From assembly GCA_964187785.1 (NCBI GenBank), contig OZ076409.1, positions 68,946,001 to 69,010,000 of the forward strand: a stretch of 64,000 nucleotides of DNA, read 5' to 3'. Under the pieces are notes generated by a model. The model was not told the origin of the DNA and did not search any database. It saw only the letters and a program-made list of their open reading frames with translations. The DNA comes from Amphiscolops sp. MND2022. Taxonomy: Eukaryota. The position numbers were made by a program, and so were the translations under genes. Of this stretch, positions 17,601-64,000 are shown in pieces; position 1 is the stretch's first letter; each line of letters starts with the position of its first letter.

Positions 17601-17723
17601 ATATCTGTAATGTAAATATTATATCTTATGTACTTAGATATGGGCAATATGATGTCATATAATAAGGGCCATGGTTGTGAGCAACCCTACGTTACTTGTA
17701 CTTTAATCCCTTCCCCCTTTGAG
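11427..17723. repeat. Tandem triplication of a ~2.1-kb unit (11427-13524, 13525-15624, 15625-17723)
   Basis: Three near-identical copies differing by scattered SNPs and 1-bp indels. Each runs from the outer end of LTR-C to the first 158 bp of LTR-A. Confidence 0.97.
12177..12278. repeat. Perfect 102-bp palindrome (also in units 2 and 3, near 14275 and 16375)
   Basis: agtaacaagttctg...gaaacctata|tataggtttc...cagaacttgttact; 51-bp arms, no spacer. Confidence 0.95.
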
Positions 17724-23900: not shown

Positions 23901-26078
23901 TTCACAGAATCGAGATCGACATCGCCTCCCGTACACCAAAACAGGAGGAAGACGAGCCTGATTACTTTCCCACGAGCGAACCGCTCAGATGCAAACGCCA
24001 GAAGGATGTCAAAGAGATGAAATTGGCAACTGGCACTGACGTGGCTCATGACGATGGGAAAGGGATGAAGTTCACCAACTGTGAGAGAACAGCGGCCTCA
24101 GATGACTTCGCGACTGACAACCATCTGACGTACCGCCTCACAGACGTGGACGAGCCGATTCAACTCTCGCAATTCATCCGTAAAGTATCACTATCACACC
24201 CGGTAATGAGTCAGGTTAGCCCCGCTGAGGGGATCGATCTAATTCAGGTCCAGAAAAATAACTGGGTTATTCAAAAAATGATTAGATTTTTAGAAGGTAC
24301 TGAAATTTTGCAACACCCAGTTAATATGCAAGATCAGTTTTTTCAAAATTGCACAAAAATCGAAAACGCCTACAAGTTGTAAACGGTGTCTTGTACAGAC
24401 AGTTTTTTGATCACACGGGACTGGAGTCTCACAAGCAGTTAGTTGTTCCTGAAGACTGTATTTTGAAAATAATTAGGACTCTACATAACAGCCCGGTACA
24501 AGGACACCCTGGTTTAAAGAAAATGTTGTACGAACTTCGTAAAAGATATTACTCTCCTAACTTAGCCTGTAAAGTTCAAAAAGTCCTTGACGGATGTGAA
24601 AACTGAATGAAATCTAAAAGTGTAAGAGAAACGCAACTACGTCCACCGTTACAAAAAATCTACGACCCGTGCGACGGACCAGAAGACCTGTTGGAAATAG
24701 ACATCGTTGGTCCACTCCCGGCGTCGAACGGTTTTACGCACATTCTGACGCCTGTTGATGTTTTTTCACGCTACTTGTTCGCCGTTCCGCTGAAGAGACC
24801 TGATACACATTCCGTAGTCAGAGGATTACTGTCGATCTTCACGAAACACGCATATGTGCCCAAGCACATTCTGACGGACAAGGGCACGGCGTTTACGGCT
24901 GAACTTCTGTCTGAAATCGCGAGAGCGGCTGATATTCACATCTCCCATGCCACGATAAAGCACGCACAGACAATAGGCATGGTGGAGAGAACGCACGCGA
25001 AATTGAAAAAGATCCTTAAAATTAGTGTAAACGCAGACCGACCACAATGGGACCGCTATGTCGACATAGCAATCATGGCCCATAACACAACGTATCACGA
25101 TTCACTGAAATGTTCACCAACTGAAATTTTCCACGGAAGAACACCATACAACCCACTAGATCTGCAATTCCGAAACGCAAACAAACCGGCTGAAACAAAG
25201 TGCAAGGACGTGAACGAAAGTGCAAGGACGTGAACGAGACTATCTAGATAACATCATTTCCGCCTATCATAAGTACAAAACGTACTATGATAGAAAAGCA
25301 CGAGCACAGCCACTGAAGGTGAACGAATTTGTGTTCCTACTAAATCCTAAGTACGACTCTCAGAGAAGCAAAGAAGAGTTTAAAACTTTCCATTGGAAAG
25401 GACCGTACAAGGTGATGAAAGTGCTATCCGAAGCAACTACATCATCCGCAAAGTAGGCACACACCAAACTCAGTGCGTACATCGCATGCGACTGAGATTG
25501 TTTAAACCGGAATTTCCGATTGATGACATCAACGTGTCCAAACATCTCTACCCAGACACTGAAAGGGTTGAAGACACGGACATTTTCGACTCGAATATTC
25601 CGACGACCGACGAAGTAGATCAGAATGAGAATGACAATCTAGATCAAGACTTAGTCGAAGAAGAGCCTTCAGAAGAAATAATTCCACAGATACAAGAACG
25701 ACACAGTCCACAAGTAATTCCACCAGAAATAACCACGAGAATAGAATATCAGCAAGTAGAAACTGACCACAACAACTTTAAACCACCTACAGTTAGATTT
25801 GGAACGCAAGAGGAAATTATTCTACCGCCCCCCCCCGCGATGAGAGTAGGATAAGAGTACCTCTGAGAGACGAACAACACGAAAATCAGTCACAACAGAC
25901 AAACACGCAAACTGAAGATGAGGAAAGGATGAGTTCTAGACCGTCTAGAAACAATCAGAGTAGGTACAAGTTACGCGAGAACCCTACACCGAAAAAATAT
26001 GCTGACTTCCTTATTCATGAGATTACATCAGCCAGAAACTCTCTGAGAAAGACCAACAAAGTAAACGTAACGAGTTAG
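21000..26078 (+). pseudogene. pol: pol of element A (PR, RT, RNase H, IN), disrupted
   Basis: LLDTGA protease; QYVDDIG RT; MCDASEHAAG and VMTDNKAL RNase H; integrase H..GHPG, DIVGPLP, TDKGTAF, GMVERTH; several frameshifts and a stop at 24604. Confidence 0.95.
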
Positions 26079-28685
26079 CCAAGTAAAACAACATTTCAAA
26101 ACACACGATGTGTTAAAGATGAAAAATTCACAAAAACGAGCCAATTACATGCAATTTCAATTTAAAAAGAACATGAAGATGTAAAATGGATGAAAAGCTA
26201 CTAAAAATCACATGAAAAACGCATAAAAACAAAATACGATGTAAAACGGATGAAAAACGACCAAAAACCCAGAAAAAAAACAACACACAAAAATTTGAGA
26301 TGAAAAAAGGATGAAATCACATGAAAATTTATCTCAGACACCCGAGAGATGAAAAGGTGATGAACTCAGTCAAAAATTCGACCAATCAACATGCAATATT
26401 TACTAGCGATGCATTTGAGATGGAAAATGCCATCAGAATGCGAGCGCACTCACGTTCATGCTATCATAATACTCTAGCTCGACTAGAGGATGAAATAGCG
26501 ATGAACTCGATCCAATTATTCAGAAATTACTTGAAATCAATTAACGATTAACGAGATGAATTTGTGATGGACACTACCATCAAATCGTGACCGAATTTAT
26601 CGTTAGCCTGACACAATACTCTAGCTTCGCTGGAGGATGTCAAAACGATGAATTTAGTCTAAATGGAAATTCGAAAATATTAAATGACTTACGATAACCT
26701 CCTTGTGATGGGAAACACCATCCACACAAAGTCACAATAAATCAGCTAATTCTCAAACAACATGTAACTCCACGAAACGATAAAAAACCGCCGACCTTAT
26801 TTCGAATCACGCAAATAGAATTATGACTCACAAAAACGAAAATGATCAATACATGTAAGGTTCAAAGACCTGCCAAATCAATGACGTCACGAAAGAAATT
26901 GACAATTCCAAACTACATGCAATACAAATGAGCAACACACGGAAATATACATGTACCGTTTAAAAATGAACGAGATAATATATGCAATTCACACCAAAGC
27001 CATCCAAACCTAGACGAATAAAAATGAAACAAACAATCGAAAATACATGAAGCCTACTAACTAACATGCAAAATATAAGAACTGACGAAACACCCACAAA
27101 ACGAATAAAGGAGTGAGCACCCCCCAGTAAACATCAGTTCATAACAAGCAAAATACCCCTATCGAAAAGCCAAAAACATTCCTTCGTGCTGGCTGGCATT
27201 TCTCTGAAAAGAGTGCTGGTTAGTTGAGGCGGGGAGCTCACAACCATATTCGGATGAAGCTTGCTGCGTTGGTTATCCAGCGGCTAGTGGATTCTCAGTT
27301 AGTTTTGTAGGGGCTTTGTGACGACAAAGCCCTGTCCAAATGAACGAAAATAAAAACACCAAATTAAAATACATGAAACTAACACCGAACATATAACAAC
27401 ATGTCGATAATGGGGCAACCCATTTAAAGGAATACATTATGAAAACACGCAAACATGAAACCACACAATATCACAAAACTTAATAATTCGAAACATGCAA
27501 AGCCGTAGATGTCAATCACCTTGATTGATCAGATTAAATGTCAAATGGACAAACCCACTTCGACGACTGATGACAAACAACCGACCGTAAAAAATAACAT
27601 GAAAACTATATATAGCTCAAAACTGAGAGATTTCATTCATCTGAATGGAGCGGAACAGCTCCACTCACCCAGCTTTGGACTGGTACCTCAAGTACCTTGC
27701 ACGCCTACGGGGTTCCAATACCATTGCTGAGTGAACATCTCTTCGACTACCACGCAAGCGGCAGTCACAAGAGTCCGAAAAATGATTCATGCAATAATGT
27801 TCAAACTATGACAAATCCGAAACGCAACGAAAATGAGTATAACACATGTACACTGAATTTCATGCAATTTCGACAAACTAACAAACGATCAACACCATAT
27901 GACACTAAAATACATGAAGAAAACACTCCCAAATTACCGGAAAATTGATAAAATACACTCATCTACCATGAAAAATGCAACTCTCGATTACGTTATAGTA
28001 AAATAAACACGAAAAACACGCAAGATAAATATTTTCCAAAATTACGATGAAAAGAAGATGAACTATGCAGCAAAATGAGCAAAATTCGACAAGTCAAAAC
28101 TTGCGATGCAAAAACGATGAACTACAGCAAATAACTCGCCAAAATGATAAAATGAAAACGCAAGATGAAAAAACGATGAACTTTGCAGAAAAACACATAA
28201 AACAACATGCAATGATTTCCACACAACGAAAGATGTAAAAAAGATGAGAAAACAGTTTTCGCGACGTCGCTCGGTCGACTGAGGAAAACAAGATGAAAAT
28301 GAGATGAGACATCACAATGAAACACTGATGAATTAGCCACACCTACACGAGATGTAACAACGATGAACACCGTAATAAAAGTTATCTAAAAGGCGCGAAA
28401 ATAAAAAGCGATGAGAAAGCGATGAAGACTATCCGCAATTCTAACCTATCCCTATCCTCACCTAAAAATGTCTCAAGAGAAAAACAAATTTCGGGTGCCA
28501 AATACTAAATATGTATATATCTACGCTACCGAACTTTCCGACGTAGCATCTGTTGTTCTCCCCCCCTGTAAATTCGTTCAATTGGTCACCCATTTGCTAG
28601 ATACAATACTATAACATACAGTAATATAAAATAACATGAAAGATACAAACAATTTCAAAAAATAATAATAAACAGAAAGTCAATT

Positions 28686-33480: not shown

Positions 33481-34616
33481 CACTGTAAATTGCAAAACAA
33501 TCTGAAAAGGAACGGAAGAGAGTGAGGAAGGAACGAAATCGAAGAATCTGGTGACAAGAATTTGATCAGTAATTAAATGGCCTGATCAACCATGATTGCG
33601 GGATACAAATTCGCGAAAAATCTCAAAGAGCGCGGATGCAGCTTGAGTGCCAGGACAAACCAAATACTTGAAATTCAGAAGATGGAAAATCGATGAAAAA
33701 CTCCGATTTCAATGACTGCCTACACTTTTCTTCCTAAATCAAGCAACTTAACAATTTTCTCTGAAAATGAATCACCCCCCAGAATTTGACTACAAAAGCT
33801 TCAAGTATTTGATTTTGATGACAGCTGCCAGTCTCAGATCAATACCGATGAAGTTGAGCGGAAACGCGCAGAGGAAATCGTGGCGATTTTCAAACCGACT
33901 TGACGGAAGATGATTCAAGGATGAGAATATTTGTTGACAACCGGTTGGATTTCTTTCAGTTCAGAAAATTCAGTTTTCAACCAATCAGAATTAGCAGTGA
34001 TTGCTATGGCAACAGGCCATCTCTTTCTCATCGCTGAGATTTCAGACAGCGGAAGTAGCTTCAACGGTTACTATGGCAACGACTCATCTCTTTCTCATCA
34101 CGGAAGCTGATAGCAAAGCAACGGCGCCAGTCGTCTGCTAAATCAACATCGATGCCTCGCTGTGTAAACAATTCATCGTTCATTCATCCCCGACTCGCTG
34201 CCAATTTGTCAATGAAGCTAGTCGAATTGTTTATTCAGTGTAGGCGTTTTGGAGGGAAACTTTTCTCCGAGAAATCAGCTTCTACCAAAAATAACCAGCC
34301 GAAACTCCCATCAAAAGCATGACAACCAATAAAATGCAGATCAGCGGACATTCGATGGACCAAGAACTAGAGTTGCCGCGTCGATAAAATTTAACCGAAA
34401 TCACCCAGAATGAAACCAGACATGACGATTGCCGAAAGTCCTCTTCTCAGAGAAGATTTGCATAGGACGGAACAAACGAAGGACATGCCAATTCAGAACT
34501 AACGAAGGACATTTTCTCCCCAACCAAACCAAGGAAGCAGTCGAAGCCAACGCTGAGACAACCATTCTCTGCACATTTGGCCCCTGCACTCTCAATCCAA
34601 ATCCCGACCCGGGGAG

Positions 34617-36860
34617 TGTCATGCCAGCATGATGGAAATGTAATCTACTAAATATCTGTAATGTAAATATTATGTCTTATGTACTTAGATATGGGCAATA
34701 TGATGTCATATAATAAGGGCCATGGTTGTGAGCAACCCTACGTTACTTGTACTTTAATCCCTTCCCCCTTTGAGTGTGAGTTATATATATTTACTTAATA
34801 CTGAGCGCTCTAGTTCCGGTGTCCGCATAAATGATCTTGCCAGAATCTGGCCTTGAAAGTGCTATATTCCATAAATATTGGTTTGTCACGACAAGGGAGA
34901 GAAGTTTTCCGGTCAGACTGGACCGAGGAATATTGGAAGTAATGGAAAGTATAACTTCTACTAACTCCCTGCCTCAGAGTATGTAGTTGTTACAAATTCC
35001 ATTAAACTCATCACAATTTCATCGTCGAATTTGGTGACGATTTTGACCTGATCAGAAATGTCAATTGGATCCATCTGCGGATTCAACGGTGCTTTTAACC
35101 AAAGTTCATCGCAATCCCATCCTTAAAGTTTGCGAGTGAACAAAACATGGGACTTTAAACTGACTTTCATCATAAATCCATCAACGGATTTTATGGGACT
35201 TATTCTAGTAAAACTCATCTTTAATTCATCGTGATTATTTCATTTAGTAATTCCTGAATGTGCTTCTCATTTCTAAGGAACAGTAGTTCATCCTTTATTC
35301 ATCACATTCACTAGTACAGAAGGGAAATGAGAAAGTACATCCTTAATTCATCCTAAAAAAGAGTGAAAGTGCTGGTTATCTGATTTGTTTAGTAAACCCA
35401 TCCTTAATTCATCTTGATTCCGTTTGTGCTGAAAATAGACCATCTTAGCGGATGAGTTCATCCTAAACTCATCGCTAGATTGAATTGGCTTAGTATTCGG
35501 TGTTTTAACTGGTGAGTTCATCCTAAACTCATCGCCAATTTGTATTGCTTTGGTATTTGCTGTTTTAATTGACAAGTTCATCCTAAACTCATCACCAAAA
35601 TTCTCCTGTACTAGAATTAGCGTTTATCGACTGAATTCATCCCGAATTCATCGTCATTTGAATCTGTGCTAGAAATTGGCAAGTTATACATGGAGTTCAT
35701 CCTTTTGTCATCGTCAGTTTGAATTGTGTTGATTTCCGAGCGAGAAAGACTACCATTCATCGCATTTTCATCCAGAGCTAAACTAGACTTGGAAATCAGC
35801 AAATATTCTTACAGGTTCATCGCATTTCCATCTTCAAGTTTTAAATCATTGATTTTGGCGCTAGAATTAGCGGAAAACATCGTTTTCCCATCCCAAAGTG
35901 TGCTTTACCTTAAATTTGCTTGAAATTAGTGCGTTATTGAATGATTTGAGTCCATTTTAGTTGCTATAGAAACCATGATGTTATGTGCAGGCAATTGCGA
36001 CATTGTAAATTGATGACTAAACACCATTAACACATGTAAATGTACCATGGTGCGTGGCCACTTTGCGGCAGTTCACAACACTGGTCACGTGACTTACCAT
36101 TTTAACACCAGCTGGTAACAGCCAATGAGAGAAGGTTGGTAAGAGATTTAGCGTCTTACCAACCGAAAAGACACGTGAACTGCTGTAATTTGGTCCGCCA
36201 TTAAATATTACTCAGCCCGAATTGCGACAAGCTACCGACCAGTTGGATATTTTAACACGCGAAAGTCACAAAACACATCTGTATTTCATCTTCAGAAATT
36301 AAAGAGCTTAAACTGAGTAATTTCTTGGTACATCTACGACTGCGATAAAAATTGGATGAACTTCTCCTGAATAACTTGCTAGTTTTCCTTCTCCTTATCT
36401 AACTGCTTACTTATTTGTACGACTTTTTCTAAAACATCTCAGTTCAGATTAGTGAATTTGAGATCGAATATTCAGTTAAATCAGCAAAATACATTGAAAC
36501 AATATCTCAGATAATCCAGTCTTCACTCATAATTCTTTTCTCTCGAATACATGAACCCAGATCAAGGTACCGAACTTAGAAGCGGTAGAGTCATACATTC
36601 CTCGTCAGGAACATCCTCTCCAATAGATCCAGACATGGCTCAGTCGTCCGCCAATGACTCTGACAACAATGAAACTTCAGATATCTCGTCCCAGTTGTCT
36701 GAAATAAGAGAGAACTATGAGAAGAAGATAAATGAGTTACAAAGCGAATTTAGTCAACTGAAGAACTTATTAATGGCAGTTATTAGTAAAAATGACGAAA
36801 ATAACTTACCTTCGACATCGCAAAGTTCTTCAAAGCCGACCCACAGAGTGGGGTTAGACA
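34617..36860 (+). repeat. 3' LTR of element A (2244 bp)
   Basis: Preceded by GGGGAG (34611-34616), ends TTAGACA followed by TSD CCGAT; contains a copy of the Gag N-terminus from 36551. Confidence 0.95.
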
Positions 36861-37920
36861 CCGATGATCATCAAACTTCATTCCAGCAGTACTGAATAGC
36901 CGTTCGATGACATTGGTTGTGGCAGGTATCCGGGCAAGTTCTCCGGAGAATTTTTAAAATAAATATTGCATCATTGAGTACTCGATCCGCAAAAGAGCCC
37001 GAATCAACTGCAGAAACTTTTTCACTGGTCCTAAAATCGTCCAAAATTTTCAAATCATCAGAGTCAAGTCACGCTCCAGAAATAATGTTCTTTATTGCGT
37101 TCTCAACTTTTTTCGAAAGTATCGGAAGTACAATAGTAACATTACAACCGATGTTGTCAAAGGTGTCAGGGTGCTCCCCAGGTAAGGCGTCAAAAAAGTT
37201 AAGATCGTCCCAGAGATTTGTGCTATCTTCCTCCAAGTTCATAGTAACATTTTGAAGTTTTTTCATAGATTAATGCTTTGAGGTCACTTGCAAGTAATGG
37301 GAAGCGTTGGACACGAACATCGCCACTTCTGAGTCGCTGGAATCCAAAAAAGAAGTATATCAAAGTATCTTCGAACTGTCGTGTAAAAAGAACACCAGAT
37401 TGTTTCGACTAGGAGTACAGTACTCAAATGAGTGCACTTTCTCAATTTTGGACCATGCATGGGTCCCCTCAGCTTTTTCTTCTGCATTTGCTCCATCTGA
37501 AGCACATTCTAGTACCTGGATTGAACGTTCTTGACGCATAAGTTTAAACGATGACTTCGCACCTATCCATGATTTGTCCATTTTTGGCAAGGGCTTTGTT
37601 TCGGTTTTCATTGTCAGCAATTTTAAAAAAATTTCCACTGATTCGTCAAAGAGACCGTTTGTTTCCCTGATAAGTTCCACATGGCTACCTGGATCGAGAT
37701 TCTTCTTCTCAACAGAAAGTGCTAAGAAATTTTGGACCCCGGAAGTAGGCAGCAATAGCTATAAAGTGCGTTGAAAACGATGACCTTCCGTTAATCATGA
37801 TACCGAAATTCTCGGGACGATGCTTGGCAATTTGTCCCACTTCTCTCGTCATTTCATCCAAGTATTTAACGAGAGTCTTGGTGGTAGTGTGCTGTAGTTT
37901 AATGTACATCCTGACCAGAA
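36861..37920 (-). pseudogene. Decayed hAT transposase 1, interrupted by element A (C-terminal tail continues leftward from 17565)
   Basis: TKTLVKYL..NFGIMING..STHFIAI, and dimerisation-domain motif IPATTNVIERLFSTAGMKFDDHR, which continues in frame as QILTPVHL across the TSD. Confidence 0.85.
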
Positions 37921-44758: not shown

Positions 44759-46270
44759 GTTTTCTGTGTTGAGTTTTCTTGTGTTGAGTTTTCTGGTAAT
44801 CGAGAAAGAATCTAGGAAACCTCGCCGAAAATTCTCCGGCAGGCAACTCGTCACAAGAACAGAAAATAATTTGAGAATTTGAGAAATCTTAGTGCTTATT
44901 TTGTGATCGTAATGTGTTATGAAGTTCTAAATTATTACGTGGTATTGCACTGTAAACGCTCTATTATGGGTAGAACTCTTATGAAGAGCGCCAAGAATAT
45001 GTACGAGTTACAACTCTTGTTAAGAGTTTCAATATATATTTCGCCCATGGTTGCCGATTTATTAGGAAAATAACAAAATTACGTCCAGCTTCAAACTAAA
45101 CAAGTAAATACTGCATCGCACTATAGTGATCAAATTAGAGTAAAATAAAATGTTTCAAGGAATGTTAACATGTAATTTTAGAAAAATTCTTTAGGTAAAA
45201 ATTTAGTTATTCCAACGCGTATAAGGGGGGAAGAGCCAAAACAATGTTTTTTGTGTAGTTTTCTGAACACCCTAGTTGAGACTGCTGGAAATTTTTACAT
45301 GCTGCAGGCCTGTATGCAGGGTAATTTTTTATAAAACCTAGAAAATTCAGTAAGGTTCCGGTGGTAAATCTTGTAGAATTACACTGCATTTTCTACTACT
45401 GCAATTGAATTTTAAAATAGTTCCCACTTCTTTTACAGACACGATCACGTTGTATTCACACATTGATTTCTCAAATACTCATCTGATTAAAGCACCGCGT
45501 CTCAAATTGGACGCTGAAGATGACGCTAAGTTTGCTGTTTACATTGTGAATGAATTTAATTTACATTAAAATGGCGGCAAAATTTTTGAGGTCTCAGCTG
45601 CATTTAAAATTAGAACTGATGCATATTGAAACTTGTAGAACTTCACGGCTTGAAATTGCCGCCAAAACTTTGATGATTCTTTAAAGCAGCTTGATAAAAG
45701 TTGGTGACAACAGGGAAATATTAACGCATTAAAGTTTCCGTAAGATATTTAGATTATCATAATAAAAGTTGCTGGCAACATTAAAGTACATGTAAAAAGT
45801 TCAAGCATGTTCAACAAGGGCAGCTGAGTATTATATTACGCCGCCTAACGACATTTTTGTGCGATGCAGTATTTATTTGTTTAGTTTGAAGCTGGAAGTA
45901 ATTTTGTTATTTTTCTAATAAATTGGCAACCATGGGCGAAATATATTTTGAAACTCTTAACAAGAGTTGTAACTCGTACATATTCTTGGCGCTCTTCATA
46001 AGAGTTCTACCCATAATAGAGCCTTTTTTGATTAATATAATGGCTTGAAATGTTTCACTTCTATCGTTTACAGTGTAATACCACGTAATAATTTAGAACT
46101 TCTTAGCACATTAAGATCACAAAATAAGCACTAAATTTTCTCAATTTATTTTCTCTTCCGGTGAAGAGTTGTCTGCCGGAGAATTTTCGGCGAGTTGCTT
46201 CCGACGAGTTTTCCTAGATTCTTTCTCGATTACCAGAAACCTCAACACAAGAAAACGCAACACAGAAAAC
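44759..46270. repeat. Foldback structure with ~360-bp inverted arms
   Basis: 44759-45121 is the reverse complement of 45859-46270, apart from short indels. Confidence 0.85.
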
Positions 46271-50401: not shown

Positions 50402-50800
50402 TGTCGTAAGCACGGGGGTTCGTGCCCGTGAATCCGTCTTTGGGGCGGTCATTGGCCTGCTTACTCTTAGAATTATTCCTAGGTTCTAAGTTTTGCAGCA
50501 TTTCGGAATATCCTTCTGGTCTCTCGGCCGGAACGTTCCATCTCTCTTTGGTCAACTGTCCAGACCCGGCCATAACTGCGTTTTGGATTTGAGGCAAAAT
50601 TTGACTACTGATCGCTTCATTTATTGCCCTTTGAATCTGAACACTGACGCTGTTCATCATTTCGTCCATCTCTCGAGATAAACGGGAATTTAACTCGCTC
50701 GACAGTCTATTGATCGCAACACTTGAACTCTCCCTGATTGAATTTTGGCCTAATTCGGTATTTGGGCTAGGTCCATTATTTCACTGACACTCACATTTTC
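50402..50800 (-). repeat. Partial LTR (Gag-N-terminus-coding 3' part), probably the deleted 3' LTR of B
   Basis: Reading frame NRLSSELNSRLSREMDEMMNSVSVQIQRAI...RAYD ends at a TG..CA-type terminus as in A and C; no PPT or LTR 5' end found. Confidence 0.5.
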
Positions 50801-51710
50801 CACATATTATTGAAATGTTTACATACTCTAAAGGATCGTGAGATTTTACGAGGATTGGAAAATAGCTATTGCATCAAAGCGATTCAGGAATTTAGGGTCG
50901 GAAGAATTCCTGAGGAATGCACTCAATTACATACTCATGATGGCTTCAAAGTACGGGGGACGGTTTAGTCCGCATTCCCGTAACAATCAACATCAAGGCA
51001 AATACATGTTCAGACACTTCAAAGTAATATTTGTGTCAACAGGTATGTGAGATATCTAAGGCACGTGCCTGCACACGCAGGCTAATTCATCAGGTAGCAA
51101 CTCTAATTATATGCACTAATAAAAGGTGAGCGCGGCCCAATTCGGCCATTTGACAAAGGTACCAGCCAATTAAAGTGACCGGTTTAGTCCGCTGGACTAG
51201 TATTTAGAGTTTTATGACTGGTGGTCACAACTACATCAATTGGGTTTAAATAGCCCCATTAGCGCCTTCTAAATACAAATATAATCCTACATGACTTTAA
51301 ATAACATGCATACTCAAATTAAACAATTACAAAAGCTAATAGTCGGAATGGCCTAATCCGGCCATTTGCCTTTGGTTCGCTTACAAAATAAAGTATAGCG
51401 TCAAGTGGCCGTATACGGCCAAACAAATATGACAGTATAATGCACAGCAGGATAGAGCGTTCTGATTGGCTAATGAAATGAGCTCAAGTGACGTCTCCGG
51501 AATTGGAGTTTCGTTCACTTGAACTCGTTTCCTTTAAGCTTTACACTTGCCTTTATTACATTACGTCACTGCTAAACAATTCATCATATAAACATAATCA
51601 TCACCGTTTGAGTTCTAACACGGGTATTAATCAGACTAATATTCAATCCGAATACATAATGAATGTAATAAACCAACAGTGAGTTTTACTGAAAGTTTTG
51701 AATAATTCTC

Positions 51711-52502
51711 CTAAAATGTGGGTAGAGTGCCCGGTACGGCTTCTTGTTCGTTAGTAGTCGTTGTGATTCGTGTCCCATCGCAAGCGGCAGCCTGCGACAC
51801 TGCGGGTGCTAAGAAAAGAAGACTTCCGGCATGTAGACCATTTTCGTAGGCTTCTCTCCTCAAGTCCGTTATCTATGCCGGTTCATTGCGCGGTGTTGAT
51901 CTACTCATGTACCAATTCACCTTCTCTTGTTTAATTTCGTCCACTGATCTTCCACAGACCATACATCCACGGCCCAACTGTTTACTAAGATCCGAATACG
52001 GCTGTACTTGTTGGATGTGGTAAGATGCGTGGAAGCTGGTGCTAACTGGCTGTTCCATGAGCTTGTCTTGGGACGGCCCTCTCTCATGTTCGGGCGGAGA
52101 CAACGGCGATTCTAACACTGGCAGAATTGTGTTGCAAAGTTCTATCCGGGTTCTTTCTGCTTTTCTCATCGGCGCATACAGGAGTTTCTCGTCAAAGTGT
52201 TTGAATCCCAATTTCGGAGTCGAAGGCGGCCACATTTGAAGATTACTCGGTCCAGCTGCTGATTCTGTAGCCTGCTCCTCCACAGTCATCTTGCGACCTG
52301 CGATTAAAATTGGGCTTGACATGACTTCTCTATCGATTCTCTCTATGATAGCCTCGGTGTCCGTGGACCAATCGGAATCCCATGAGGTAGATGAGGTGCC
52401 TTCCTCCTCATCACTCGATAGGTAGATGACCGAATTTACGGAGGCTTCTGAGTCCGATTCTTCTAAGTCGAAAAGCCTTTTTGCTAAGTTAAATTTAGCC
52501 AT
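51711..52502 (-). CDS. Extra sense-strand ORF of element B, unknown function (acidic N-terminus, CxxC)
   Basis: MAKFNLAKRLF...SSDEEE...GCMVCGRS; TAG at 51873-51875, but the frame stays open to 51711. Confidence 0.55.
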
Positions 52503-53407
52503 TATTATCTTTTTTGCAATTTTGTTGATTCGCAGAGCGACTTGTTGCTTGCAAGGTTCAAAGTTGAATAAATTTGTCAAAATTTTCTTCAGACCAATTC
52601 AGGCTATTCTCCCGGAGTCCCATTTCGGCGGGAGAGACCATGGCCAATCGCCCTGATCCGTCGTAAACTTTCTAGAATGGAATTTCTCAGCGGCTTATTT
52701 ATCCTTTGAAATTCGGAATGGAACCCCCCTTTCTCACTCTCTCAAGTGAGTATGCGAAGGGGTGTTAAGTTGACAACAACAAATAATTCCACTTCGAGTG
52801 GGTAATCAACATCAAGCTTGATAGCAATTAACGGCACTTGTCGGATGAAACTCACTGAAATGGCTTCAGCCAATCGAATTTGAGTTTCGATAGATGTGGA
52901 AAATGAATAATAAAGATGGCAGAAAATAATAATTTTGAATAACTAAAATGGCGAAAATCTAACTAAGGTAACTAGGAAAACTGAACAAAACGGCAACATA
53001 AATTGGGGTAAACGGCCATAATCGGCCACTAATTGTAACAAGGTTGTAAATAGCGAGATACGTCCTGTACATTTCGCTGGCAGACTCCGTGTACAGATTT
53101 AAATATGTAGATAATCAAATAATATTAGTCTGGTAATTTTCTTCAGCCACGAACTCCAACTTTCAATCTCTTTGATTATTATTATATTCCAATTCCTTTT
53201 TACTCACGTAATTGTTATATTCGAATTGTCCATTCGTCTGAATCTTCGATAACGGTATACGATCGCTCCTGCTTTCGCTTCCACCGACAGCTATTCCCAT
53301 CGGATCATCTCCGACTTCCCTTCACCTTTAGCCGAGTTCGGCCTTATCCCCCAATTATCCAAGCCGATCTAGGACTGTTTCCCGAAACTCAGCGCTTCTA
53401 CGGCAAG

Positions 53408-56400
53408 ATGTCTTCTGATTCAGGTTGGTTTGGATTTTATAATTTGAACAAAGTTAACTTGATCCGAGCTAATTTGTCCGATAGGCGCTTCCTGTTTCCA
53501 TCAACTAATACGCGATAGCACGTTTCGTTCACGTTTCAAACACTTCCGGAAGATTTCTAATGCGGTTTAATGGATTCTTTCCAAGGAAGCTCACCGCGAA
53601 AATTCATCTCTTTCTGTTTAGAGAATCCAGTAGAAGAAACTCATTCGACACCAAATCCAACCTTTGTCCAAGTCTCTACCGCAATTGATGGCAAGGGTCC
53701 CAGGCCTGAGAATCAACTTGACCAACGGGCATCCTCAAAAGAAGATGATAGTGATGAAGACGTTAACGCATACGCTGCCAGCGTTGTGCGTCTGAAAGAG
53801 AAATCCCCAATTTTTGGGACAGAACAATCTGGAAACACTGAGGTCCAAGCCCAACAGACCCTAGAATCAGCAGTTACGGGCTCGGATATCGCAACCCAAG
53901 TCCGGACGAGTACCCCAGTACCAGTCGGTCCAACTGAGGCTCACCCCTCTAGTTTGACTTCCCTCGAGTCAGCTCTCAGGATTACTACCACAGCGGAGAG
54001 CAGCCTTCCAGAGTTGGTCCCAGTTACGACATCCCTCATCAGAGAACATTCTGGAACACACCTTTCTGCCGGCGAAGACACTTCATCTTCCATATATGAG
54101 GTCCCAGCACTGCCCGGATTGTCGGATCAAAGGATACTCCCGAACGAATTAAGTGACGCTGAAAAGACTGAAGATGAGATAAGTAGGTTGGGATATCATC
54201 ATACCCGAAATATTGCCTTTGGCGATCCAGAGTCAGGAACGGAGGGAGGAGACGAATCAGGTCCCGCTACCGAGATTACCAATCAGGCGGAACCCGGAAC
54301 TTCAGGACGTACGGTCAATGTCCCCACGCAGGAATTGTCGGGAAGGAGCAGGGCAATACTCAAACAATTTTTCGATGAAACGCCTCCATTTTCTTTGTCA
54401 GTTGGACATCCCACAGTGGCTTTTAGTGAGCCCCAATTATATCACCTCCTCAAAACTCTCACCAATGAAACACTGAGTCAGTCTTTCACAACCATGGAGA
54501 AGATGGTTTTAGGAGCAGTAAGGGGGGCCCCAGCGACTGCAGAGTCACGGACTGACCATTTTCGGTCTCGGCACCGAGCCCAAACTCCCCACCCTCGAAT
54601 GGACAGTGACACTAGCGAGGGAGGAACTGAGAGCGATTCGTACTTTGGTCCACCTGGTCCAGGTTCTTCAGGTACCTCAGCAGGAGAAGACATGTCGGTG
54701 AGTTATGGGGAATCGGACAGTGCAGCAGAAATGGCTTTGATTGCCGAGTCATTCCAGAAATCTACTGCCGATGGGTCCAAACAACGAGCCTCAGAAGCAA
54801 GGATCCCGGCCAAAATTGTTGACGCTGGAACCTCCAGTGAAATGAGTTGTCCCGATGAGACACTGTCCGCAATCAGGGAAGCAGCAAGTGAGGAGAGGAC
54901 TAACACAGCCCCTCAGATTAAGAAGACTAAAAGGAAATCTGTTGCAGTCCAACGTGGGGTCCCCATGCGGGAGGAGTTTTTCTCCAAAATTGGTTGGACG
55001 CGGTCCTTCATCTCCGGGCCTGCAGACCCTCTCCACAACCCTTGCATGGTGTGGTGCCACATCTGCAAGAAAAATATCTCTATAAAGACTAAAGGCACTT
55101 TCGAGATCATACGGCACCACAGGTCAGAGAAGCATTTGAGGCGCGATCAAAGGTGGAGATATGAACACCTTCGAAGTGTCGACCCCATCAGTGGAAAAGT
55201 TCAACACAGAGTACGAGGCCGGAACGGGAAGGTGTTGACTAAAATTGAGCTTGCCAAGGAGCTCCCGAAATTTATCCATGCCGAATTGGTGGACATAGGG
55301 GAGCGTTTCCCCTTTTATGACGATTTCCTTAAAGGAAGCTCTACAGCGCTGGTGACACCTGATTCGCGGGCCAAAACCCAAATCTGTATCATCTCGGACT
55401 ACATCCAGACGCACGGCGACCTGTCTTTACTTCGCAATTTGTGGGCAAGGATTGGGTCCTTCACAAACTACCAGGCTACGCTTTGTGATTTTGACTGGGG
55501 CGAAGAACGTCTCACTGTAAGTATAGTCTTCATTGACCGCTGGAAAAAGAAGGGGGGGTCGTATTAATCGTTATTGAGTATTCGTGTTTTTCAGGCCATA
55601 TTCCAGCATATCTTCAATTGTGCAATGGACGACATCTCCCAGGTGGTAGCTGCCGAACAATGTTTCTCAGTAGAGTTTGAAGACTACGGTAGTTATCGTC
55701 ATATGAGTGTACGCTTCTGGAAAGACGAAAAGTTGTGTCGCGTGTTTACATGCCGTAGTAAGCTCCCATCACCGCAACTCACAGGGGAGCTAGGATCACT
55801 GTCTCGGTTCCTTTCCGTGGTCTCCACCAGAGCAGACATCGTGGCGTGTTCTGGATGCTCAGTGGACTTTGTACGCACTCTTGACCATTGCAGTTACTTC
55901 CCCAGAGGAGTCCAAAGCTGTTCCCGATTCGAGCACTTGTCACTGTTCACACTGATGCATAAAGGAAGTTACAGCGTCTTTGGAAAGATTGACTTCTTTT
56001 CAGTGTTGCAAGCCCTCTTGGTCTCATTGGGAGGGTCTCAAACAGAGGACTGGGTCCTAGAGTCCCCCGAACTTCATCGGGTTGGTATGACAGTTAATGT
56101 GAATCACGGGTTCAAAATAAAGGCAGAGGTTTCACTCCCGTTCTATTATTCTAGGCAATCTCTTCATGCAAAATTGACCTTAAGGGCCTGCCCACACTGT
56201 GCACAGAGCTGGTCAACCAATGGAAGAATGTGCGCACTTATCTAACCGTTCACTCGGCCAGACAAGAAGGTCAAGGAGTCCGAAGCAGAGTAAGTCTTTC
56301 GTCCTAATCGTTCCACATCGTGGTTGATTCAGAGTTCCCTTGGTCTTTTACAGGCCACTAATTTCTTACTGATTGTTAACACGGTCTTTGTGTTTCACAG

Positions 56401-57716
56401 GTGCAGAGTTTTGAGTAGTCGCTCATTTGTGACGAGTTTATCACTGTCAAACTCGAGTTTTTCCAACGACTTGTCAGCGATTGTTAGTGGTTTCTTGTAG
56501 TTTCCTTTTGTTTTGTTCTGCTTGTTTCGGACATTTTCCTTTTATGGTTGTAGATTTATCCAGCTTCGTAGTCAACCTCCACCAGCGACGTGACGCATCC
56601 TTCTATCTGTTTGGTGAGGCTAGCCAATTTGTGTACCGGCTCTGTTCCCGCTGTTTCACCCCTGATACTGTCCCCTTAGAAAATTCCTGGTTCCATCTCA
56701 TGGGATTCAAAACATCGGAAGGAAAATTCAAAGAGGTGGAGGACTTCCTGATTCGGCTGAAGCTCTCTTCGAAAGTTGCTGCAGCCAGTAAAATCAAGGC
56801 TGAAGGGCTCTTAGTTGGCAAGAAACCTGATAAGGCCACAATCCAGAAGACCGTCAATGAAGTGAAGAGTGATTTTGTCCAGGAGGCACTCAGTTTCATC
56901 AAGCACGTGATAGAGGGAGTGTTACATCAGGTGGGGCTGAATTCCCACTTGGTCCAAGGCTTGGCAGCTTTCAATCCTCAGATCTTGTTTAGCCGTCCAA
57001 TTGATGTTGCTTTGCGGCATTTTGAGGTGCTCTATAACACTTTCCTGCAACGATCTTGGGTCACAAGCGCTGATGAATCTTCTTATCGCGAAGAATACCT
57101 CGGTCTGGTAGACCATTTGCGAATTACTTATCCGGCTGACTTCAACTTCACCGATTTATCTGCTGATTTGATCGAATTCCTCATGGGAGTTGATTTCCTC
57201 CGTTCTAAACCACGACTTCTCCGTCTCTTCAAGTTGTGCTGTCTGTGCATTACGGCTTGTAGTAGAGAATTCCCTCCTGTTACTTTTGGTAACAATGGTC
57301 TTGTAGGCCCTCATGGAAGGTTCACTGATGTCGTGTTGCCAGGACAAAGTTATTTGTCTGGGGTTCCCGATTCAATCCCATTCTGCAGTCAGGATTCAAG
57401 TCTGCCAAAATTCTCCTTGCTTGCCTCTGATTTCGGAAGGGCAGCCTTCGCCCCCACTTATGATCCTTGGGATTATGTGGACACGTTTGGGCGATCCAAA
57501 ATCTATAAGTCCTTACTTTCGTCCTACAAGGTAGCGGCAGCAGGCCCTCAAGGAAACGTTGTCAGCTTGGATCCCCGAGAAGTTTCTCCTATACCTGAGC
57601 AGTCTGCCTTACAGATCCCAAGTAGTACAAAGAGAAGACGGATGGGCACTACAAAGTCTCGGTCTTCTAGTTCATCTGTCACCAGTGTTCCCACACCCTC
57701 AACTTCTAAGAAGTAA
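53408..57716 (+). CDS. Antisense, spliced accessory gene of element B (~1,258 aa; low-complexity N-terminus, zinc finger, hAT-transposase-like body)
   Basis: Exons 53408-53423, 53622-55516, 55595-56080, 56155-56289, 56401-56482, 56554-57716. All GT-AG and in phase (3777 nt); one in-frame TAG at 56416. Finger CHIC-x16-H-x5-H. Confidence 0.82.
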
Positions 57717-57960: not shown

Positions 57961-60900
57961 TTAGTATCTGAAGTCTTCTGAGTAGTTTGGATTAGGGTTA
58001 GGCCTGAGATTATATTTCCCTCCTCTAGGGCTCAGACTTTCATTTCTAGCATCGCTTTCGGATATTTCGGACACGATAATATCATCCCCCCTTTTTGGAG
58101 AGGTTTGTGCATCGTTTTCATTCATTGAATTTCTTTCTGAAAAAATTTCATCATTTTCCGGTCCACCTGCCGTACTCGGCAAAGAATTTTCTTGGTTTTT
58201 TGGGGAAACGGCCGGATTCGGCCAATCAGATTTGGTATTTTCTGTCACTGCAGTAGCTTTATTTCTTTCAGTGACGTCATCATCTAAGCGTTTATTCCGG
58301 CTGTGTGCCGCGTTGTCGTTGTTTAATTCTTCTCGCGTGATTATGTAATCCGCTTCGGTCTCGTCTACGTCATTTGCATTCGTTTCCGCCGTGTTCGGCT
58401 GTTCGCCATTCGGCAGGCTAGTCGGAATAGGAGTTCTGCCTCGCGTGACTAGCTGTTCGCCAAAATCAGTTTCCCACGTTATGATGTATAAATCATCTTG
58501 CGGAATTATAATTTCTTCATCTGGCTGCAACTGTTGTTCTCGGAAATTGTCCTCTAGCGGTTGATTGGGGACAAACTTTTTCAGGCGAATCCGATGCAAA
58601 ATTTGAGTTTTGTTTGTATTAAGCCGTCGTACTATGTAGTTTTCATTTGGTAAAACTTTTTGGACTATAAATGGTCAAACCCAGCGGTAATCTCGGAAGG
58701 GAATCTTTGATCCTTGATTGTCCGCTTTCGGCTGTAGGACGAAACAGTACTCATTCTCCTTTAATGGAGCAGCTTTTGCTTTACGGTCGTAATATTCTTT
58801 GTATTTAATATACGATTGCATGATATTCTGCTTCGTCTTGTCAATCAAGGCTTTAGTCCGGTTTTGGATTTCTTCTGCAAATTCGGTTGTAGGGTTGATC
58901 TTTTCGTTTGGATTATTTCCAAGCTTGTGATCCAGAATGTTATAGGGAATTCTGCCATGGAATACTCTCGTTGGCTCACAACCAATACTGGCATGATAAC
59001 TCGTATTATGATTAAGTACTGCTAATGGCAAATATTTATGCCATTGTCGGCGGTATTCCCCACATGCCATTTTGAGGTTTGTTTTCAACGAGGCATGGGT
59101 CCGCTCCAATTTCCCAATTGTTTGCGGGTGTTTTGTCGTTGCACATTTGAGTGTTATGCCCAAAATCTGCGTAATCTCCGCAATAATGGTAGAAGTAAAT
59201 GCAGTACCCTTATCAGTAATAAGAGTCGTTGGCAGATATGTATGTTTGGTCATTATATCAATGAGCGCTTTTGCCACATTGATCGCTGATGCATCCGCAA
59301 GAGGGTAAGCGAATAAATATCTGGAGAAAACATCAATTGCCGTTAGGACATTTTCATACCCTCCACTTGGGGGAAGATTCGGCAATAGGTCAATCTGCAT
59401 GGCGTCTTCAGGTCCAAGGTCCCATTCGGGCAAGTTGAGCAGCTCAGGTGTGATCGTTGCGTTAGGGACTCTCTTGTCTCTGGCACATTGTTCACACCCT
59501 TCTACCCACTTTTTGACGTGTTTAGCCAGGCTAGGGTAGTAATACCTTTGTCTGATTTCCTGCAACATTTTTGAAATCCCGGGATGTTTATGCGCTGTCC
59601 CGTGAAGGGAGTGAAGCAATTCCCGAAGTAGGTGTTGCGGGAGCAAAATCTGATGGTATTTAACATTCCCTGTTTCATCAAAATATTGCCTCGTCAGGAT
59701 TTCGTCCTTGAGTACAATTCGTTCCAGATTATTTGCATAGTGTCTATATCGGGCATCCTGTTGCAGTATGTTTTCTGAATAGTCTTCATGAAGGAGCTTT
59801 GCCTTCAATTGTTGCAATACTGCATCTTTGGACTGCTCGATGATTATCTGGTTTGTTTTCTTCAATCGGACTTGAATGTCTGGTTGTTGTTTGACCAGAT
59901 TGATTGACAGAGTTTCTATGGTAACTGTGGGCTCATCAGTCATTGGATTTTTCCTGATTGCTTCTTTTCTTGCCCAATACTGTTCCTCTGTCTCGTCATC
60001 ATCATTCGTATAGAATATTTGTTCTTCCTGTGATACCCCCGCAGATTGGACATTTATCTCAATGGGTAAAGTCTGCACGTCCTCACGGATCTTCATGATT
60101 AATTTATCCTTCGGATCTGCCTCCAATCGGGACAAATAGTCAGCCGCTGTGTTCTGTGCTCCCGGGATATGCGCTATGACAAAATTGAACTGAACCACAT
60201 AATCGCATGCATTCCACAGGGCTGGGGGTATTATTTTCGTTTGGAAAAATCTCGTAACGGCTTTGTTGTCGGTAAGGATAATGACCGGTTTGGGCGCACC
60301 CCAGAATATATGTCCAAATTCTTTGAATGCAAAGTAAATTGCCAGAAATTCCTTGGCATATATTGACATTTTGATCTGGGCTGGGGTGAAGGTTTTTGAT
60401 CCATAGGCCACTGGTGCGTAGGATTTTCGGAGAGATGTGAATTTCTGGTTTGGATCGTCCTCTATTAAGACCGCATATCCAGCTGCACCAAAACTTGCGT
60501 CAGTCATTAGTGCGATTTGTTTGTTTGGGATAGGCTGTTGTAGGGCTAAATCGCAACATTTGTCGAGTGCTTTGTTGATTTCTTCGAATTGTTGGACTAA
60601 TTCTTTCGATACTAGGACCTTTTCGTCACTTTTGAGCATCTTGTAGAATGGAGCAAGGCGTTCGGAGAGTCTTGGGACATAATTCCTGTAGTAGTTTAGG
60701 AATCCCAAATAGCGCTGTAAAGCCTTTTTCGACTTCGGGAATTTAGTCTTTTCCAGGAAGTTTTGCACATTCTGTTTCTGGGGTTTGACGCCTTGTGGGG
60801 TAATAGTCCGTCCGAGAAAATCAATTTCTTTTGCACCGAAGTGACATTTGTGCATTGTTAACTTAAGGCCTGCTTCCTGTATGCATTTGAATGTAGCTCT

Positions 60901-63174
60901 CAGGTTCATTATGAGGTGGTCAACATCATTGGCTGCGATGCCGATATCGTCCACATACTTGGCACACTGATCTGCTTTGATGACTTTGTCGAGGTATTCC
61001 CTCATGAAACTTGAGAATGCGGATAGTGAACGGCTAAGGCCTTGTGCCAAACGTCTGTAGGCAAATGTGCGACTGGCAAAATTGAAAGCTAACATTTCGA
61101 TTGAGCGTTGGTCGGCCATTGGTAGGCGGTGGTATGCCTGCGAACAGTCTAATTTACAGAACAGTTTTTTGCCTGCCAAGTGTTGGGCAGCATCAACCAA
61201 GGTGCTAACAGGGTGATTATTGTTGATATAATCATCCGAGATGAGGTTGTTGATTTTTCTCAAGTCAACCAAAAGTCGTAGCTTCCCATTTGGTTTCTTT
61301 TGGGCGAATATTGGGCTTGCATACTTTGAGAACGGTAGTGTGGTTATTATGCCATATTTGTGCAACATGGCTAATTCGACTAGGATGTCCTCCTTCAGAT
61401 TGATAGGAGCTGGAAGGCTTTGACTATAGGCTGGGGAATCGTCCTTAGGTGTCAGTTTCACTTTGAATTCCTCGTTCATGCCTATATCAAATCGGTGTCG
61501 TGCAAAGATGTCATGGAATTCCACTAACAATTCTTCAATTTTCTCCTTCTCTTCAGGAGTAAGGGTGGAATCTTTCCAGTCAAAGTTTTCTAAGAATTTT
61601 GCACGCGATTCTGCATCTGTGGTGGGGTCGAGTGTCTCCAGGTCCTGTAAGGCCTGTAACTCGCGTAGGATTCGTTTTTGTATAGGTGTGTGTTCCTCAG
61701 GATTTCCAGGGTTTTCTGGAGTTGGGAACCAATAATTTTCGGAGTTTTGTGGATTTCTATTGGTTTTGATGAGACTGCTGACATAATGGGCCGCTTGCTC
61801 CTGGTCATTCTGCAAAAGGTGCCAGGTTGATGCCGGGTCTACCGGTTTGACATACTTCATCTGTTCTGGCGTCATGACAGAGAAATTGGCAATATGTAGT
61901 CCCTTTTTGAGTTTATAAGGGTGGTCTGTGAAGTTGCTCACTGGTATCGATATATCGCCGTCATTCAGAGTGACCAAGGCTGGGCAGAATGTGATGTCTT
62001 TTTCTTCATGTAGGAGGTCGCTCGGTTGCAAAATCCCAGTGACAGCATTTTCAGGGTATAGTAAGGAATTAGTCCGGATTAGGACTCTGTCATTTGGCGG
62101 GATGGTTATTTCAGCAGGGTTGAGTATTGGTTCAAGTACGTTTGAGTACTTATGGTCAGCTGTTTTGAGCTGCATTGAAAAGAACGGGAAATTCAAAATT
62201 CCTTGTCTCATGTCCAGTACTGTATGATTTCGTTGAAGGAACATTAGGCCGATAATCGGACCTGTCAGGTGTTCCATGACTAGAAAAATCTCATGAAACT
62301 CAATGTCACCAACTTCAAATTTGAGCTCTATGGTACTCTTAGGAGTTTCCAATTGCCCATTAGCAACCATGATTTGGAAATTTGGAGGTGGACCTTCCCG
62401 GATAACAGATTGTGGAGATAGGAGTCGAATTTTCCGGAGGTCCATCTCAGGAATTGCACTGGACAGCGCTCCAGTGTCGATAAATCCGTCTATGGTCAAC
62501 TCCCCAAAGTCCATGGGGAAGTACAACATGCGTTTTTTGCATTTGAGATTGATGTTGGTTGACAATGGTACACAGTCTGGTTCACCGTCCCTGGTGATTA
62601 AGATATTCTGGAATTGCTTCTCGTCTAATAGTGATTGTGGTATGGGTTGAGCAACGTCTTCATGGGTCTCTGTCCCTAATGGGTTTGGGAACACTGGATG
62701 GTTGGTGCCATCATTCATTTGCCAGTTTTCAACTAGTGCTCTGGTCTTTTTATTGTGGGTGATTGGAGGGTTCTCGTGGACTGTTCTATTATAGTGCTCG
62801 ATGTCGTCTAAGACATATTGAAATTGTAGTTGTTCCTGGTTGTAGATTTCTGTGTCCCAATAAGGGTCTCTGCCGTAGTCTGGATCTATGTAGGTAGGGT
62901 TGTAATTGTCAACCAGGGGAATAGGCCTGAATCGGGTAGTGAAGGTAGTGGTATAATCAGGGTCCCAAACAGGAATTGGTTTTTGGAACAAATGTGTGTT
63001 GTTATATGTGATGGTTATTGCTTTATCCATCTGTTGCTGCCAGACAACAGAGGGATAGCCCATCAATTGCTGATTGTAATGGTGGAAAGTTTGCGTTGGA
63101 GGGTCCGATCTGATGTATTGTCGGACAGATATTAGTTCGTTATATTGGAGTCGTGGCGAAGTTACTTTTTTGAC
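57961..63174 (-). CDS. pol: Pol of element B (PR, RT, RNase H, IN); one frameshift near 58675 in the C-terminal region
   Basis: 1463-aa ORF with FIDTGA, KYVDDIG, MTDASFGAAG, ILTDNKA, HGTAHKH..C..C, DLLPNLP, TDKGTAF, GKLERTH; frame open from 63174. Confidence 0.96.
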
Positions 63175-64000
63175 TCATCATTATGATATGAGGATTGGGA
63201 GCCCGATGATGTCGATTTGGTCTGGGGTTTCTGAGCCTTTGGATTGGGCCTATTGTCAGTTGAGTCCTCAGGTCTAGTGCGTTTGGGTTTAAGATGTGCA
63301 CCAGCACCTTGCCAACATCGTTCTTCCGGGTGGTTCTTTTTGCCACAAGTTCCACACTCCGGGTATGTTTTCTTCTGAGTTGACTTGCCTTGTTGGGCAT
63401 CTTTCTCTTTTTTCTTTTTCAGTTTTTCGCAGTCTTTGACCATGTGGCCTTTTTCCTTGCAATAATTGCAAGTAATGTCTGACATTTGCCCAGTGGACAG
63501 AGGAGTTTTAGATTTTGTAGTCGAGGAGGTCATTGTGGCCATTGGTAGGTCATCTGATTCCTCAAGGGCGTTGAGTTCCAACTCTCTCTCCAAATGAGCA
63601 ACAATTTCATCATATGAGCCATTTTCTAGTCTGGCCATGTTGACAGACCGCTTCAACTTAGGTGGCAATTTTGCATAGAGCAAGCTGTCAATCATTCTCT
63701 GTGCATGATCACCAAACGCCTTCTCGGCTCCCTGGTTTAATTCTTCGAGAAAATCAGGCAGCTTCATCGTATTGGGATCGAAGACTAGGCGGTGCCATAT
63801 ATGTTTGGCAGTCGCCTGTGATTCGGGTTTGACGTATTTCCGTCTAAAGATGACTAGTACGTCCTCTAGAGTTTGTCGGTTGTTTGAGCTGATATTTCTG
63901 AACGTCTGAAGAGCATTCTTCCTCAATAAAGAGTGGAAGTGATTGATCTTCATTTGTTCAGTCATTTCTGGCTGCATCTTGATCATAGTGTGAAATAGGT
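63162..64000 (-). CDS. gag: Gag of element B (N-terminus outside the window)
   Basis: CNYCKEKGHMVKDC and CGTCGKKNHPEERC knuckles; homologous to the Gag of A. Confidence 0.92.
   Translation of the reverse strand, partial: LFHTMIKMQPEMTEQMKINHFHSLLRKNALQTFRNISSNNRQTLEDVLVIFRRKYVKPESQATAKHIWHRLVFDPNTMKLPDFLEELNQGAEKAFGDHAQRMIDSLLYAKLPPKLKRSVNMARLENGSYDEIVAHLERELELNALEESDDLPMATMTSSTTKSKTPLSTGQMSDITCNYCKEKGHMVKDCEKLKKKKEKDAQQGKSTQKKTYPECGTCGKKNHPEERCWQGAGAHLKPKRTRPEDSTDNRPNPKAQKPQTKSTSSGSQSSYHNDESKK

Follow-up and report, generated by a model that had tools for sequence, protein, structure and literature searches.

A spliced antisense gene of probable hAT ancestry in Ty3/gypsy retrotransposons and in a CACTA-like transposon of Amphiscolops sp.

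A 64,000-nucleotide stretch of the Amphiscolops sp. MND2022 genome (assembly GCA_964187785.1, contig OZ076409.1, positions 68,946,001 to 69,010,000; hereafter the window, numbered from its first letter) contains two Ty3/gypsy elements, A and B, with pol proteins 39-51% identical. In each of them, the interval from pol to the 3' long terminal repeat (LTR) holds a gene that reads in the opposite direction. The presence of this accessory gene in the window was confirmed; in element B it is antisense to gag-pol and lies between pol and the 3' LTR. It has the defining features of an aORF-3R, namely antisense orientation, location in the pol-3' LTR interval, and conservation in most copies. We favor, with a probability of about one half for the reading as a whole, a spliced antisense gypsy gene derived from a hAT transposase, the product of which may act as a nuclear, DNA-binding regulator of chromatin that counteracts silencing, so that its carrier element can still be transcribed.

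Structure, selection and module swapping

The gene survey annotated 80 of the 81 fetched loci (35 of clade B, 25 of clade A, 13 of clade C, and seven of clade D; the clade A locus L163 was excluded because of missing exons), and 62 of the 80 copies were kept for protein alignments, those with more than one stop codon being left out. A first look at the 1.07-Gb genome yielded 7929 candidates with the B finger exon and 2478 with the A finger exon, numbers that are not copy numbers. The spliced frame is open in 49 of the 80 loci and broken in 31, among them the window copy, whose exon 4 is interrupted by a single in-frame stop. Splice sites were placed by conservation and one precise intron absence: in seven of the 35 B loci, intron 3, following exon 3, is missing exactly, in support of the splice model. 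Exon lengths of 486, 135, and 82 nt are nearly constant across clades B, C, and D, and the clade A gene matches that of B in its 486-nt exon and in the phases of three introns and aligns with it at 21% over 486 columns, which points to one ancestral gene older than the split of these gypsy clades. The C-x2-C-x16-H-x5-H finger described in the earlier note on this DNA recurs in 60 of 62 copies from all four clades and is the slowest-evolving region of the protein.

Of 16 pairs compared, eight had a dS short of saturation, and in these the ratio of nonsynonymous to synonymous substitutions (dN/dS) of the accessory core was 0.03-0.25; that of the integrase was 0.02-0.05 (8 pairs). An antisense pol piece lies downstream of the gene in 72 of the 80 loci; the remaining eight comprise two loci in the CACTA-like element described below and six from clade A whose stretches stop at roughly the median distance to pol in that clade. 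This strong purifying selection, together with the fixed position beside pol, supports co-option by a retrotransposon, as the earlier note proposed, and maintenance of the gene there.

The accessory tree and the integrase tree alike recover clades B, C, and D2 as monophyletic. Within clades, some pairs have integrases 97-99% identical and accessory genes only 56-63% identical, so the gene swaps independently of pol. Similarity to pol starts right past the accessory stop codon (57719), and ahead of exon 1 lies a conserved block (52.8-53.15 kb), likely a promoter and module junction, that divides the accessory gene from a small open reading frame (ORF) in gag-pol sense and from U3. Only seven of the 21 pairs whose accessory genes are nearly identical have the small-ORF/U3 module in common. 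The element thus consists of three reassorting modules, and a tight pairing of the gene with its own LTR is unsupported.

None of the 7990 candidates scored with a diverse profile proved to be a longer homolog, and scans of metagenome and viral contigs gave no confirmed relative. Two divergent homologs (P0269 and P0318) have best matches in the Amphiscolops genome of 37% or below the cut-off; the family is therefore probably present in other organisms or strains.

A CACTA-like second carrier

Two D loci without pol nearby (L184 and L185) both lie inside a 35-38 kb element with the CMC transposase, short terminal inverted repeats (TIRs), short target-site duplication (TSD), and subterminal repeats of the EnSpm/CACTA group. 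Its TIRs measure 43 bp, the 2-bp TSD is clean in three of four copies, and the copies are 98-99.6% identical. No gag or pol was found in it by tblastn. It encodes its own CMC-type transposase (DUF1258 over the cut-off with E 3.9e-9; Transposase_21 and DUF4218 weak) and two SET-domain ORFs closest to KMT5B/SUV420H1, one of them SUV4-20-like (E 4e-9). Seven accessory copies (contigs C1-C8) lie between listed TIR pairs, and the accessory gene is under selection in this element, which has neither gag nor pol.

The nearest relatives of the CACTA-borne gene (71-77% identical) are found at L186 and L187, both of them ordinary gypsy elements. Immediately behind the CACTA-borne gene, in reverse orientation, comes a remnant of the integrase tail of gypsy, 72% identical in DNA over 343 nt and ending in the same NLRP(N/T)P..EYRY-type motif, which shows that the CACTA-like element captured the accessory gene from gypsy. 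Because the tree leaves the order within D1 unresolved (support 0.36 and 54), the direction of transfer rests on this remnant. Six arrays of an 88-bp unit in the CACTA-like element resemble a two-unit stretch of the integrase tail; the unit matches four of seven D loci (the D1 ones), none of 35 B and 13 C loci, and, weakly, one of 25 A loci. Two variants of the element have transposases 98% identical and accessory genes only 75% identical (pN 0.16, pS 0.89), so capture or replacement must have occurred more than once, unless the gene was exchanged later. The element also holds long hairpins and a fragment resembling another gypsy small ORF. A 31-nt word of its TIR has 165 exact matches in the genome, some in pairs 1-1.5 kb apart that are probably short derivatives.

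Probable ancestry, catalytic residues and proposed role

The accessory gene probably descends from a hAT transposase, as the earlier note proposed, and this part of its claim stands on sub-threshold evidence, the sequence-profile tests having remained blank. The ESM-Atlas neighbors of the last exon are uniformly hAT families carrying Dimer_Tnp_hAT (0.84-0.88, at lead level), and the order of motifs is collinear with that of hAT transposases. The Foldseek comparison with Hermes, a check named in the earlier note, placed Hermes third, aligned over 197-309 columns, at a sub-threshold E of 0.058 and with a poor model; Hermes was not among the matches of a fold search with the last-exon model. A zf-BED match was weak (E 0.066) and confined to one of nine finger exons. 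Pfam found Dimer_Tnp_hAT (PF05699) in 0 of 76 and 0 of 48 proteins and was blank for exons and homologs, as was a PDB sequence search with three profiles. Searches with PF14291 and PF25431 in the same genome gave no match, the controls being silent too. hAT elements are present in this genome.

Sites equivalent to the DDE triad, assigned by eye and structural register, do not make up a full triad. At the first, Glu occupies position 211 in all 44 B-D copies and position 213 in 33 of them, and neither position is acidic in the 18 A copies; the second is Gly in 44 of 44 B-D copies; the third is variable, with no conserved acid in 62 copies. For the CxxH motif, Cys occurs only in B (27/27) and His in 11 of 27 B copies at a shifted position, neither being found in A, C, or D, and the conserved Trp of the RW motif is absent from all clades. 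Both the CxxH motif and this Trp matter for hAT cleavage (excerpts of PMC4763223). Since no clade has the DDE triad, CxxH, or RW, the protein is, as predicted from its sequence, not an active transposase, in agreement with the earlier note, which had also seen no TIRs. Around the gene, indeed, neither hAT TIRs nor an 8-bp TSD were found; the flanks are LTRs with a 5-bp TSD or CACTA-type TIRs with a 2-bp TSD.

In the favored reading, a gene of presumed hAT origin would have been captured once, before the divergence of clades A-D, which have intron positions in common. Its introns would outlast reverse transcription because the packaged RNA, judging by orientation, is the opposite strand, and expression would start from an internal promoter near 52.8-53.5 kb. 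Finger and scaffold would bind DNA, and the long acidic N-terminus would perhaps recruit activators or block silencing. The cassette moves between gypsy subfamilies and was taken up by the CACTA-like DNA transposon, as observed. A gene that benefits an LTR element as well as a DNA transposon, and that swaps with respect to integrase, is unlikely to serve in the particle or in reverse transcription. A DNA-binding chromatin regulator, as TnpA and VANC are in plants, would fit the constrained finger, the dead transposase-like scaffold, the acidic N-terminus, the neighboring histone-methyltransferase-like SET genes, and the clade-specific repeats (GATGAA for clade A, the 88-bp arrays for D1 carriers). 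More tentatively, the dead hAT transposase may be a portable anti-silencing transcription factor that passes between transposon classes: gypsy elements would have tamed it and swapped it as a cassette, and the CACTA-like element would have taken it up together with its binding site and amplified that site along its length as the 88-bp arrays. The putative site would then lie in the integrase tail, and the arrays would stand beside captured H4K20 methyltransferase genes.

Several results weigh against the favored reading. Clade B carries no repeat array of the 88-bp or GATGAA kind, and a search for a B-specific motif array found none. The accessory gene did not co-segregate with U3 in the pairs compared (7/21). 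Hidden Markov model searches, hhalign, and profile alignment against the hAT ORFs of this genome gave no signal over shuffles; every sequence-profile test was blank, and structure scores stayed below significance, with integrases scoring on par with Hermes in VIA.

A protein of the same origin could instead be a cofactor of integration or nuclear entry that binds complementary DNA, integrase, or chromatin and steers insertion, a role raised for antisense ORFs in excerpts of PMC7264820. The fixed place next to integrase, with the antisense pol piece downstream, and the basic patches at both protein ends would suit it; the free swapping against integrase and the retention under selection in an element without gag or pol make it unlikely. 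We regard as doubtful the view that the gene is not hAT-derived; its source would then be a host gene or some other DDE superfamily, and its product a zinc-finger protein of a different RNase H-like, or an unrelated, fold. The blank profiles and sub-significant structure scores speak for this view, whereas the uniform hAT neighborhood of the last exon, the rank of Hermes within the top three Foldseek rows, and the collinear motifs speak against it.

H4K20 methylation is usually a repressive mark. The resemblance of the adjoining SET ORFs to H4K20 methyltransferases and the existence of hAT elements in the genome would accord with a repressing or self-limiting function, in which a defunct scaffold of transposase type damps the activity of its carrier or poisons the hAT transposases that compete with it; yet this is improbable, as the carriers are both recent and numerous (LTRs 99% identical; the 7929 first-look candidates) and the protein is too divergent from resident hATs for likely co-assembly. 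A nested hAT insertion, still autonomous or neutrally decaying, to which the broken loci might point, is refuted for the loci examined by the missing hAT ends and 8-bp TSD, the same position in four clades, purifying selection, and the lack of DDE.

Antisense extra ORFs are common in LTR elements, their origin and function being open questions (excerpts of PMC7264820), and are known from plant and fungal gypsy elements (excerpts of PMC7264820 and PMC11963269). The present gene resembles those of Retand in position, antisense orientation, family-wide conservation, a probable promoter of its own, and a suspected nuclear DNA-binding role. It differs in its 1270 amino acids and four conserved introns (the Retand paper never uses the word 'intron'), in its resemblance to a whole hAT scaffold, and in being common to a DNA transposon; excerpts of PMC7264820 describe antisense ORFs as lacking similarity to other transposable elements. 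With hAT transposases (Hermes; the FAM200/ZBED5 and ZMYM1/DUF4371 groups) and their domesticated forms it has in common a BED-like finger, a predicted RNase H-like sheet, a long helical region, and comparable motif order and spacing. Unlike hAT transposases, it lacks DDE, CxxH, RW, and TIRs and has an extra 465-aa N-terminus, and unlike host-domesticated hATs, it is retained by other transposons.

Plant Spm TnpA and VANDAL VANC are transposon-encoded accessory regulators (excerpts of 10.64898/2026.08.24.746577 and PMC5735166), with tandem-repeat arrays in their carriers as here, and TnpA is likewise transposase-derived. Both belong to plant DNA-transposon systems, and TnpA comes from its own superfamily's transposase, whereas here three superfamilies are involved: hAT as the likely donor, gypsy as the main carrier, and CACTA as the second. 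TET/JBP genes, common to many fungal DNA transposon lineages with no retrotransposon carrier found (excerpts of PMC12730594), are also chromatin-linked accessory genes passed among unrelated superfamilies; the present gene differs in crossing from class I to class II and in not being a known enzyme. Literature searches, which covered mostly titles and the openings of abstracts, turned up no LTR element with a spliced, hAT-like gene in antisense and no transfer of one to CACTA. In this family the origin can be traced, candidate copies number in the thousands, the gene has swapped between backbones in nature, and a second, unrelated carrier has a candidate target repeat, which makes testable whether retrotransposons encode sequence-specific anti-silencing factors and whether transposons domesticate each other's enzymes. 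If the more tentative reading, with the binding site amplified into arrays, is true, the system would be an animal-type counterpart of VANC assembled from parts of three superfamilies.

Feature coordinates and neighboring elements

Table 1. Positions of the accessory genes, their host elements, and the second carrier (window numbering unless a contig is given)
Feature	Position	Strand	Remarks
Accessory gene, element B (five exons)	53570-57716	+	1270 codons, all introns GT-AG
Exon 1	53570..55516	+	~465 aa Ser/Thr/Glu-rich region, basic KKTKRK patch, zinc finger, helical segment
Finger C-x2-C-x16-H-x5-H (BED-like)	55055..55135	+	most conserved part of the protein
Exon 2	55595..56080	+	486 nt in clades A-D; predicted RNase H-like sheet
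First predicted strand, FSVEFED (exon 2)	55664-55684	+	
Gly equivalent to second Asp (exon 2)	55853-55855	+	
Exon 3	56155..56289	+	135 nt
Exon 4	56401..56482	+	82 nt; in-frame stop of window copy at 56416-56418
Exon 5	56554..57716	+	helical domain, conserved L-x-C-L-C segment, low-complexity basic tail
Region equivalent to third Glu (exon 5)	57243-57275	+	acid not conserved
Conserved block between two divergent genes	52800..53150		CCAAT-like box, 1-4 AA[AG]ATGGC copies ~32 bp apart
Small ORF, gag-pol sense	51873..52502	-	209 aa here, ~260 aa in 19/20 relatives, no Pfam match
gag-pol, element B	57961..64000	-	zinc knuckle, protease, reverse transcriptase, RNase H, integrase
3' LTR, element B	50402..51799	-	TG..CA; TSD GCAAT
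Accessory-gene core exons, element A	31373-30812, 30580-30095, 29958-29763, 29617-28686	-	antisense to its pol
EnSpm/CACTA-like element	L227/L226/L211/L184/L212, G000 C2:29298733-29334033, and copies		

In element B, a stop sets apart the integrase tail (57961-58674), and the 5' LTR lies just past the window (64292-66031 in extended coordinates), being 99.3-99.7% identical to the 3' LTR. The gag of element B begins within this LTR and reads through the primer-binding site (64292-64883, extended coordinates), and that of element A likewise begins inside its LTR (19480). The small ORF of element B, head-to-head with the accessory gene, has an acidic N-terminus and a CxVC motif and moves together with U3. 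The LTRs of element A lie near 17.56-19.81 and 34.61-36.86 kb, and its pol is frameshifted; the non-coding DNA and LTR of this element (25900-28680 and 33600-36900) are rich in GATGA(A), with 60-bp repeats in the LTR. In the clade A loci such DNA mostly has 7-14 GATGA(A) per kb, against 0-4 per kb in the core introns. Three tandem units of ~2.1 kb at 11425-17816, each with a perfect palindrome of ~100 bp, share sequence with the end of the element A LTR. An element with long nested inverted repeats, resembling a miniature inverted-repeat transposable element or a foldback element, occupies 44759-46270.
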